DNA from: a virus
Lineage: Duplodnaviria; Heunggongvirae; Uroviricota; Caudoviricetes
Strand: one strand, 5' to 3'
Virus record (IMG/VR): IMGVR_UViG_2585427971_000012
DNA length: 44,826 nucleotides
Shown here: positions 31,310-34,300 of the stretch, in pieces
Layout of the letters: each line of letters begins with the position of its first letter
Numbering within the stretch: position 1 is the first letter of the stretch
Translations under genes and position numbers: made by a program
The notes under the pieces: generated by a model
Told to the model about the DNA's origin: nothing
Seen by the model: only the letters and a program-made list of their open reading frames with translations
Databases searched by the model: none

Positions 31310-34300
31310 TTAACTATCCTTTTCAGGTAGTTTTACAACATAAGTCCTTATTGTTTTCTCATATGTATTTTTGCTATTCGTTATTTTGGCCTTAATCCAG
31401 TGATAACCACTTTCATAGGTGCTGAATTCCGAAGCTGCATTACCTGTCCAGTGTAACGTTACTGTAGCAGGCTCCATTTTGACCCGTTGAGAGTCTGGAC
31501 TATCTTCACTACCAGCAGAAAACTCAACCGTACCAGATAATGGGTTTCCAAAATGATCGACAAATCGAGCATAAATACCTACTGGAGATCCATCGTTTGT
31601 CTCATAACCAGGATCTTTTGTTAGAGTCAATACTCCATTTGCGTCATCAGCGTACAGGGAGAATGATTTCACCGCGCTAACATCACTGCCAAGTTCGTTT
31701 AAGGTCGCCGTTAATTTATACGAACCAACCGTTCGACCATGTACGCTTACCGTAGCCTGACCGTTCTCATCAGTCGTTACTGTGGTTTTATCAACCACCA
31801 ACGCACCATATTTAGACGGCCCAGATGTCTTAACATTCAATGCTCGACCACTTAATGCTTCGCCTGACTTACTTTTCAACAGTAACGTAAATACCAGATT
31901 GTTGGTATCGCTCACTACAGCCGAAGATGCAGATGATGTGATCTCCAACACAGCCCCCTTCACATCCGTCACGGCATCAATATTCTGGCTTGCGGTTATG
32001 CGTTTCCCATCCAGAACATACTCGGCCTGAATTGTGTACTGGCCTGATTTCGATGCAGTGAACTGCGTTGTTGCCTGTCCATGAGCATCCAGTTGCAGAT
32101 TACTACTGGTCAATGATGCTCCCGTCGATGGTGTAATCGTTAAATCCACCTCGCCTGTAAACGCATTGTTATTCGCATCAACCAACTGAATGTTTACTGT
32201 TGCGTTTTCACTGCCATCGGCCACAATCTCCTGTTTTGATACACTCATATTCAGTTCTGCAGAAGCAACATCGGGCACAAAAGTTAACTTAACGCTGCCA
32301 GATTCCACGCTATGGGAACCGTCAGTCACCCGTGCAGTCACCGTGTACTCACCAGCTTTCACCGTTGTAAGCGGAACAGAAACATGCCCTGTTGAATCAG
32401 TCACGATATTTGTTGGTACAGATAATCCTTCAGATGAGGTGATGAGCTGAATCTTTTGCCCATTGACCGACGCATTCGTATTTGTCAGCTGCACATCTAA
32501 TACCGCTGCATCCTTACCATTAGCAGGAATATTGGAAATTAAACTACTGCTTTCAGGCGTCAGTGACAGTGAAGCTCCGGTCATATTTGATGCAAAGGTC
32601 ACTGTTAACTCAGTAGACATCTGAGAACCAGCATGAGCTGTAATCACGTAAGACCCCGGAGTGGAGCTTATTAACGCAAAAATAGCATTACCATTTTCGT
32701 CAGTTGAAACAGCATGTTCACCACCAACTTGAGTTATCCCTGCTGGTAAAGACAATGTGACAGCATAACCAGGAACAACATTGCCGAAACGGTCCGCAAG
32801 GCTTACAGTTACCATATTTCTCTGTTTTCCATCAGCCAATGCATTATTTTGGCTGGCTTCAAACTGAGAGAATGTAACCTGCTGCCGGTCCTCAATAAAG
32901 GTGATTTCTTTCTTAACACCTGAGAAATCATGACTATCAGATTTAACACCGATAGTAATCTTACCAGCTCGTTTTGAAGTTACTGTCGCGCTATAGACAC
33001 CGTCTTTTTCCGTTACAGTCCCAAACTCGACTCCTTCTGCCTGGTTAAGAGCATAAAAGCTCAGAGTGTTATCACCAGTGATTGCATTTCCTTGTGAATC
33101 CTTCACTGCCAGTTGTAGATTGATATTGTAACCAACTACCTGTTCTGCTGGTGCAGCGGTTAAAACAGCACTGACCTCAGAATCAGGTTCTGTTGTTGCT
33201 GTTTGCTTAATACTGAGAGTAAATGTTTTTCCCTGAACTTTTGCAGTTACACGTACCGTACCAGCCTGCGAACCAGCAGCCAGAACAGAGCGATATACCC
33301 CAGCAGAGATTTCCTCTACCGCGCCTAATGACGGAGCAGTTACCGTTTCACGCTGTCGAGCACTATTGCTATCTGCTGTAAATTCCACTGACATTTCAAT
33401 GTCATCAGCCAGTCCGGTTAATGCCTTACCGTTACTATCTTTCAGGCTTAATACTATCGGATAAGTGGATTGGCTATCAGCAGAGATCGTCGGCGACGAA
33501 TCTCCATCCAGTGTAAAAGACGAATCAGCTGTCGATACATCACTATCAGTAATGGCTGCCTGCTTAATATTCAGAGTAAAGGTTTTTCCCTGAACTTTTG
33601 CAGTTACACGTACCGTACCAGCCTGCGAACCAGCAGCCAGAACAGAGCGATATACACCAGCAGAGATTTCCTCTACCGCGCCTAATGACGGAGCAGTTAC
33701 CGTTTCACGCTGTCGAGCACTATTGCTATCTGCTGTAAATTCCACTGACATTTCAATGTCATCAGCCAGTCCGGTTAATGCCTTACCGTTACTATCTTTC
33801 AGGCTTAATACTATCGGATAAGTGGATTGGCTATCAGCAGAGATCGTCGGCGACGAATCTCCATCCAGTGTAAAAGACGAATCAGCTGTCGATACATCAC
33901 TATCAGTAATGGCTGCCTGCTTAATATTCAGAGTAAAGGTTTTTCCCTGAACTTTTGCAGTTACACGTACCGTACCAGCCTGCGAACCAGCAGTCAGAAC
34001 AGAGCGATATACCCCAGCAGAGATTTCCTCTACCGCGCCTAATGACGGAGCAGTTACCGTTTCACGCTGTCGAGCACTATTGCTATCTGCTGTAAATTCC
34101 ACTGACATTTCAATGTCATCAGCCAGTCCGGTTAATGCCTTACCGTTACTATCTTTCAGGCTTAATACTATCGGATAAGTGGATTGGCTATCAGCAGAGA
34201 TTGTCGGCGACGAATCTCCATCCAGTGTAAAAGACGAATCAGCCGTCGAGACACCACTATCAGTAACGCTAATATTCATCACGGCATAGTTGGAAACGTT

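Follow-up and report, generated by a model that had tools for sequence, protein, structure and literature searches.

Tandem 357-bp repeats of variable number in a prophage-borne inverse autotransporter adhesin gene of Escherichia coli

The adhesin gene and its repeat array

The viral genome record IMGVR_UViG_2585427971_000012 (IMG/VR, Caudoviricetes) was analysed over its full 44,826 nucleotides, hereafter the window. Next to its phage replication genes lies a gene for a 1421-residue adhesin, predicted from its sequence to be a type Ve (intimin/invasin-family) inverse autotransporter (IAT), in which three near-identical 357-bp units follow one another in tandem (Table 1). We consider it very probable that this array consists of in-frame copies of an immunoglobulin (Ig)-like domain in the membrane-proximal stalk of the protein, and that misaligned exchange between the copies both varies the length of the stalk and homogenises the copies. 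Intact open reading frames (ORFs) of 1183, 1302, 1421 and 1540 aa, corresponding to 1, 2, 3 and 4 units, are present in E. coli, which shows directly what the initial annotation of the window had proposed, that units can be gained or lost without breaking the frame.

Tandem Repeats Finder reported a single strong array (33204..34266; period 357, 2.98 copies, 98% matches, 0% indels, score 2063), and an exact-seed repeat finder recovered the same three copies, with spacings of 357 and 357. When the window was compared with itself at an offset of 357 bases, 29–30 of each 30 bases matched at about 33204–33909 and about 5–13 of 30, the background level, on either side. In this comparison the only mismatches of unit 3 to unit 2 are at 33213, 33215, 33224 and 33299, and those of unit 2 to unit 1 at 33637, 33656, 33845, 33887, 33893 and 33897. 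Counted over 357 nt, the first and second units (u1 and u2) differ at 6 positions, u2 and the third unit (u3) at 7, and u1 and u3 at 11 (98.3, 98.0 and 96.9% identity, respectively). These values are above the roughly 90% under which the initial annotation was to be given up, and its description of three almost perfect repeats at 33205..34270 essentially coincides with the array delimited here. The differences are located mostly at the array edges, just 1–3 bases of a 305-nt core varying between the units of the window, and at the protein level they amount to 2–4 residues per 119 aa, again chiefly at the edges. The array corresponds to residues 437–791, directly after the D00-like domain. It does not behave as a contingency locus, in which repeat number would shift the reading frame or the promoter spacing: the unit length is 357 = 3 × 119 nt, the ORF that hosts the array is intact and so are the examined alleles.

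The assignment of the protein relies on several searches, which agree with the earlier placement of the repeats inside an adhesin gene. The Pfam family of the N-terminal 12-stranded IAT barrel, IAT_beta (PF11924), matches residues 57–334 with E = 5.6e-101 and 338 bits, against a cut-off of 22.3, and is accompanied by eight stretches of Invasin_D3 (2.3e-61) and five of Big_1 (8.4e-56). In a phmmer search against solved structures, residues 97–341 match the barrels of invasin (4e1t, 9.9e-74) and intimin (4e1s, 6.8e-63), and residues 910–1155 match invasin 1cwv. The D00-like domain, searched in isolation with Pfam, gives a weak match to Big_13 alone. The N-terminus, as read from the translation, resembles a long signal sequence (MTTVNKKLKK...SLIPANSFA/SS), and the passenger would be displayed at the cell surface, as expected from this layout. 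The six distal domains are presumed to be the functional part of the passenger; neither a lectin domain, nor a LysM domain, nor an invasin-type C-type-lectin-like tip was detected in the Pfam search of the protein.

A single 119-aa unit scores 39 bits against Invasin_D3, above the gathering cut-off of 33, with unit residues 5–108 matched. One repeat unit is therefore taken as one predicted Ig-like domain, the ends of the two almost coinciding, in agreement with the original suggestion that whole Ig-like domains are repeated. Its identity to the six unique Ig domains of the same protein is 16–21% in the paralogue alignment. An AlphaFold model of the unit, built from eight paralogous domains, is all-beta with eight strands (mean pLDDT 63.8, low confidence) and its Foldseek matches are weak and all Ig-like sandwiches, including FdeC, InvE and invasin, which lends weak support to an all-beta Ig-like fold.

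The RefSeq label of the protein is generic ("inverse autotransporter beta domain-containing protein"). Its scores lie below the NCBIfam cut-offs of all named families compared (score/cut-off: IatC 388/2400, intimin 329/1400, SinH 318/999, Ilp 312/1125, YrIlm N-terminal model 305/750, Cronobacter Inv 284/710 and YchO 270/508) and, because of this, the adhesin is counted as an unnamed member of the inverse autotransporter family, as judged by these profiles. The extraintestinal pathogenic E. coli (ExPEC) vaccine antigen SinH, also named IatB, was ruled out as its identity, being a protein of 724 aa encoded at another locus and scoring below its family cut-off. FdeC, considered for its near-equal length (1415–1416 aa vs 1421 here) and also devoid of LysM and lectin domains (PMC6714894), was discarded too, since its solved fragment 4e9l has no sequence match to the adhesin, the fold match is weak (Foldseek) and the genomic context is different. 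The E. coli IATs FdeC (EaeH), IatC, IatD, YeeJ, SinH/IatB and intimin share with the adhesin the species and the layout of a barrel followed by Big_1 domains, but the known genes occupy fixed positions in the chromosome, in contrast to the prophage location of this one at icd.

Table 1. Coordinates of the adhesin gene, its parts and neighbouring features in the window
Feature	Position	Strand	Basis or remark
Predicted inverse autotransporter (type Ve) adhesin gene, 1421 aa, prophage cargo	31310..35575	-	ORF translation, Pfam, RefSeq label
Predicted outer-membrane beta-barrel translocation domain, aa 57-334	34574..35407	-	Pfam IAT_beta; phmmer to 4e1t, 4e1s
First passenger domain, D00-like, aa 342-441	34253..34552	-	phmmer to intimin 6tqd, E = 1.2e-09
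Repeat unit 1 (u1)	33910..34266	-	gene nt 1310-1666; first-unit variants G13, C17, G23 at 5' edge
Repeat unit 2 (u2), internal	33553..33909	-	gene nt 1667-2023; absent from two-copy allele, doubled in four-copy allele
Repeat unit 3 (u3)	33204..33552 (start also set at 33196)	-	gene nt 2024-2372; last ~30 nt diverge into linker of next, unique domain
Six distinct predicted Ig-like domains, aa ~794-1421	31313..33196	-	Big_1/Invasin_D3 stretches, best aa 902-996; paralogue alignment
GC-rich hairpin and T run, terminator-like	31278..31298	both strands	9 pairs, 7 G-C, loop 3; consensus match only
Two weak sigma-70-like hexamer pairs	35597..35661	-	9/12 matches each; sites no more frequent than in shuffled sequence
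ORF matching replication gene P	35825..36526	same as adhesin	precedes adhesin
Replication gene O	36523..37542	same as adhesin	phage_O_Nterm; precedes adhesin
IS66-family element, tnpA	28639-29064		
IS66-family element, tnpB	29061-29411		
IS66-family element, transposase	29442-31055		

Repeat number and exchange among units

The adhesin gene was searched in 5426 complete E. coli genomes and about 560 of these carry it, at 90–100% identity, many of them labelled O25b:H4-ST131. The best match is at least 99% identical in 408 records, the full-length gene is present at 100% identity in many independent complete genomes and, for 542 of the 560 carriers, the match covers at least 80% of the gene. 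Copies were counted with a query of exactly one unit in register, which yields one BLAST place per unit; an out-of-register query is unsuitable for counting, as it gives three or four places for the same three-copy array. The in-register query returned 1399 places in 560 records, with a median of three per genome. Counts per genome were obtained from an evenly spaced sample of 60 carrier records, whereas totals were estimated from the place counts: three units were observed in 38 of the sampled records (one of which has two loci), two units in 12 and one unit in 10, and for all carriers, three units are roughly estimated for about 370 genomes, two for 95 and one for 93. The gene spans obtained with the whole-gene query (4266, 3909 and 3552 bp) agree with these counts, and each of the six alleles that were fetched has an intact ORF, of 1302/1303 or 1183 aa. 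Four units are present in the complete chromosome of AVS0193 (NZ_CP124455.1), in an intact 4623-nt ORF whose 1540-aa product equals database protein P0136. The count of repeat copies in homologous genes that the initial annotation had recommended thus gave a range of 1 to 4 units.

The possibility that the three copies are an assembly artefact, the true gene having one or two units, was weighed at this point. Near-identical 357-bp repeats exceed short-read length, several database proteins marked as partial stop within the array (at 451, 534 and 640 aa) and the two-copy form is over-represented in a mostly draft collection, where the exact window protein was found on 906 contigs and its exact two-unit derivative, P0012, on at least 1000. 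An artefactual expansion is nevertheless extremely unlikely, given that hundreds of complete genomes, assembled independently, have the identical 4266-bp gene over its full length and that the units are told apart by fixed single-nucleotide polymorphisms (SNPs), which are the same in E. coli E41-1 (1421-aa ORF, same array bounds, 100% identity). Any artefact would run in the opposite direction, with three copies collapsed to two in drafts: among complete genomes of the same allele class in the sample of 60, those with three and with two units number about 38 and 4, respectively. In drafts, the units are probably counted too low or the assembly is interrupted at the array; these data give indirect support to the assembly hazard that the initial annotation had pointed out. 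The identical gene in so many complete genomes speaks against the artefact that the initial annotation had named as the other way in which it could fail. Protein fragments of 106–129 aa, from contigs of 220–390 bp, were considered as collapsed repeat contigs and rejected, their sequences being N-terminal or barrel fragments. In AVS0193, RefSeq divides the four-unit region (1682-6304 of the fetched locus, L008) into a pseudogene fragment and a separate "invasin domain 3-containing protein" despite the intact ORF, an annotation hazard caused by the extra repeat.

Other irregular copies of the gene were observed. In the E. coli genomes H1-H8 and H65 an insertion sequence interrupts it, namely ISEc23 (IS66 family), ISEc52 (IS3 family) or a further IS3 element, and genomes H78-H80 have truncated copies only; the adhesin gene is therefore dispensable in some backgrounds. 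FXCREC048 (NZ_CM135821.1) has six unit places and, like FXCREC028 (NZ_CM135822.1), eight whole-gene places, so that both apparently have two copies of the locus per chromosome. In protein P0005 (E. coli UMEA 3489-1, 1423 aa), unit 2 breaks at "APSLGA" and returns to "GNGTSWQITLP" of the preceding D00-like domain, an out-of-register duplication that is either a product of illegitimate recombination or a misassembly.

The composition of the length variants is informative on how they arose. The two-unit allele of strain SCAID WND1-2022 is exactly u1 + u3, with 0 mismatches to the window over 3195 nt of flank, and the four-unit L008 reads u1,u2,u2,u3; the units of both are identical to those of the window. 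As two, three and four units are present on one flanking allele, the events are recent, and the two- and four-unit alleles look like what homologous exchange between units out of register would produce.

A second set of observations concerns the uniformity of the units. Within the 305-nt core, 1–3 sites differ between units of one allele (11 in L007) and 6–21 between units of different alleles. Thirteen core positions are common to u1 and u2 of L004 vs the window, that is, allele-specific SNPs are present in both units, and only the edges (unit positions 13, 17, 23 and 329-356) follow the position in the array. This sharing of SNPs within an allele is the pattern of concerted evolution, and it sustains the proposal of the initial annotation that the copies were recently duplicated or are homogenised by recombination. 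Between the window and L004 the repeat core is 4.3–5.6% diverged, whereas the flanks differ by 1.07% (5') and 0.21% (3'), so the repeat block seems to have been exchanged or homogenised as a unit. Changes between the units of different alleles affect 12–17 codons synonymously and 4–8 non-synonymously, which indicates that purifying selection acts on the domain and that it is no decaying remnant. Judged by their sequences, the alleles are mosaics: in L006 and L007 the distal half of the gene (window 31313-33195) is 8–10% diverged and the barrel-encoding 5' part 1.8–3.6%.

The same data can be read without any ongoing homogenisation: alleles would have diverged from a single-unit ancestor, and the unit would afterwards have been duplicated, recently and separately, in each lineage. 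One-copy alleles do exist in two lineages (L003 is near the window allele and the core of L005 is identical to that of L004), and the identity within an allele would then follow simply from the youth of each duplication. We regard this history as unlikely. Independent duplications would need the same breakpoints and phase without prior homology, yet the 357-nt period and the junction phase are equal in every multi-copy allele, and the units of L007, although 11 core differences apart, share allele-specific SNPs as an older, partly homogenised array would. Because of this common period and junction, the alignments argue for one duplication in the ancestor, whose copies conversion or unequal exchange has since kept uniform, rather than for duplications that recurred independently; once two copies exist, independent duplication and ongoing homogenisation are inseparable from sequence alone.

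Under the preferred explanation, units of 357 bp that are 97–99% identical would permit misaligned homologous exchange to add or remove whole domains with the frame kept, and the same process would keep the copies of one allele alike, resulting in a population of length variants with 1 to 4 units. For the recombination pathway we infer unequal sister-strand crossover, gene conversion and replication slippage as possible routes. According to Lovett and colleagues, RecA-independent slipped or sister-strand exchange is reportedly also efficient at E. coli tandem repeats of a few hundred bases; such exchange, or that by the prophage Red system, is as possible as the RecA dependence originally suggested.

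Related adhesins and stalk length

The closest precedent within the family is YrIlm of Yersinia ruckeri. YrIlm/YrInv have the same IAT barrel followed by a passenger of tandem Ig-like domains, and their near-identical repeats of ~300 bp, each a domain, differ in number by allele and are a recognised problem in short-read assembly (PMC10174560; also cited in PMC6714894). The passenger of YrIlm consists almost wholly of identical BIG domains (PMC10174560), whereas the adhesin described here has 1–4 repeats followed by six unique domains, resides in a lambdoid prophage and scores 305 bits against the YrIlm cut-off of 750. In E. coli, a survey of IATs described neither tandem-repeat number variation in IatC or IatD nor any prophage-borne IAT (Goh et al., 2019; PMC6714894). 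Invasin of Yersinia pseudotuberculosis, which provides the closest solved barrel (4e1t) and whose Ig-like domains D1-D3 match residues 910–1155, is the model of a rod of Ig domains that projects a distal binding module; it differs in having diverged, non-repeated domains and a C-type-lectin-like integrin-binding tip, the latter not detected here.

Outside the family, the array resembles those of the Periscope Proteins (for example SasG, Rib, Sgo_0707 and CdrA), surface proteins whose folded domains are encoded by long DNA tandem repeats of high identity; they were screened for by repeats of >50 residues with at least 80% identity and are defined by a repeat number that varies between strains (Whelan et al., 2021; PMC8201768). 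The adhesin has repeats of 119 aa with 2–4 residue differences and intact alleles with 1, 2, 3 and 4 units. The location of the array, between the barrel/D00 region and the six unique domains, would suit an elongated stalk below a distal functional domain; the unit model is of low confidence (pLDDT 63.8). Periscope Proteins are mostly Gram-positive LPXTG proteins with many repeats, in ranges of 3–14 or >40, whereas here the anchor is an outer-membrane barrel and the range is 1–4. The main text of the Periscope paper contains no inverse autotransporters and no mention of this adhesin gene (PMC8201768). The array is thus a real but ordinary case of a length-variable bacterial adhesin.

In our proposal, the three near-identical Invasin_D3/Big_1-type domains of 119 aa would form the membrane-proximal stalk of the prophage-encoded adhesin, and each unit would move the six distal domains by about one Ig domain (roughly 4 nm) off the outer membrane. 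This effect on reach is expected because the array lies at the base of the passenger, and by analogy with the rod-like Ig stalk of invasin; the change in length may in turn influence adhesion or immune recognition. Several points weigh against the proposal. The rod-like geometry is assumed, being taken over from invasin, and the structural model is weak, with no Foldseek match of the unit model at E ≤ 0.001. No Chi site is present in the array. The range of 1–4 copies is small when compared with classic variable-length adhesins, and the number of units goes with the allele (nearly always three in the 100%-identity alleles, two in the 93.6% allele and mostly one in the 98.1% allele), and such a lineage-typical copy number implies occasional change rather than a fast switch.

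This tracking of lineage and the narrow range, together with the interrupted (ISEc23, ISEc52) and truncated (H78-H80) copies that point to dispensability in some backgrounds, would be expected if the polymorphism were a neutral by-product of repeat recombination and stalk length had no functional consequence. We hold this to be a serious possibility, but the less probable one, as most carriers keep the ORF intact (in 542 of 560, the match covers at least 80% of it), changes in the unit are mostly synonymous and other variable-length adhesins, taken as an analogy, do depend on their length (PMC8201768). It may also be asked whether the repeated domain itself binds a ligand or is immunodominant, so that copy number would tune avidity or antigenic load instead of reach. 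The repeat core is indeed the most diverged part of the gene between near-identical alleles (4–5% vs 0.2–1.1%), and the almost uniform passenger of YrIlm mentioned above provides a parallel (PMC10174560). We find such a role improbable, since the divergence of the core is mostly synonymous and the array adjoins the membrane beneath the six unique distal domains, a position which in invasin and intimin is that of the stalk, with binding located distally (Hamburger et al., 1999, as cited in PMC9937491). A more specific idea goes beyond the proposal itself: selection may have adapted the length of the stalk to how thick a capsule or O-antigen layer the adhesin must cross, with three units fixed in O25b:H4-ST131, one or two in others, and changes introduced by Red during induction. 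We give this idea little credence; if it were true, the prophage would deliver a length-tunable adhesin as a lysogenic-conversion function.

Prophage setting and significance

A lambdoid prophage of E. coli, integrated at icd, carries the adhesin gene as cargo between its replication and nin regions. In E41-1, the annotated order is icd, integrase, excisionase, exo/bet/gam, repressor, replication genes O and P and the adhesin, followed by a convergent alpha/beta hydrolase, ybcN-ninE-rusA-Q, the lysis genes, iss and the terminase. Phage gene P is separated from the start codon of the adhesin by 249 bp, and the terminator-like hairpin lies 12 nt past the adhesin stop and is common to the convergent hydrolase gene. 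The GC content of the adhesin gene is 44.0%, vs 51.3% for the window. By its position between phage modules, its low GC, the terminator-like hairpin and the weak promoter-like sites, the gene may be a lambdoid moron, a lysogenic-conversion cargo gene. No nucleotide match to the adhesin gene was found among the sequenced phages in INPHARED, and a tblastn search of sequenced phage genomes with the barrel gave two distant matches (35–44% identity), one of them in a Salmonella contig. Literature searches by protein accession and on the topics ST131, prophage and invasin, made within a searchable library, turned up no paper that describes the gene.

Other features of the prophage were noticed. Two bet/exo-like ORFs (261 and 226 aa) at 40352-41814 have the size and order of the annotated bet and exo of the E41-1 prophage, and on induction a recombinase encoded by the phage could work on the repeats. 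In the window, an IS66-family element interrupts the alpha/beta-hydrolase gene convergent to the adhesin (27690-31273); the ORF at 27690-28568 is the esterase-like N-terminal part of the interrupted gene, which in E41-1 is intact (1044 bp). Inside the O gene, at 36989-37082, short tandem and palindromic repeats with periods of 19, 23 and 43 (consensus TTTACCTGATTCAGGTAAAC) resemble iterons of a lambda-type origin. In the E41-1 prophage, the lysis region includes an annotated iss (L001 21464-21757), which codes for a serum-survival lipoprotein, so the element has at least two candidate lysogenic-conversion genes.

What is notable here is the location of the adhesin in a prophage and its prevalence in ST131, the mechanism itself being textbook. 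The gene is present in roughly a tenth of the complete E. coli genomes, among them most of the sequenced ST131 isolates considered here, and for any use of the protein as a marker, in typing or as a vaccine antigen, the array is best sized by long reads. Periscope-type length variability is in this way extended to an inverse autotransporter of E. coli, and to one that is borne by a prophage.

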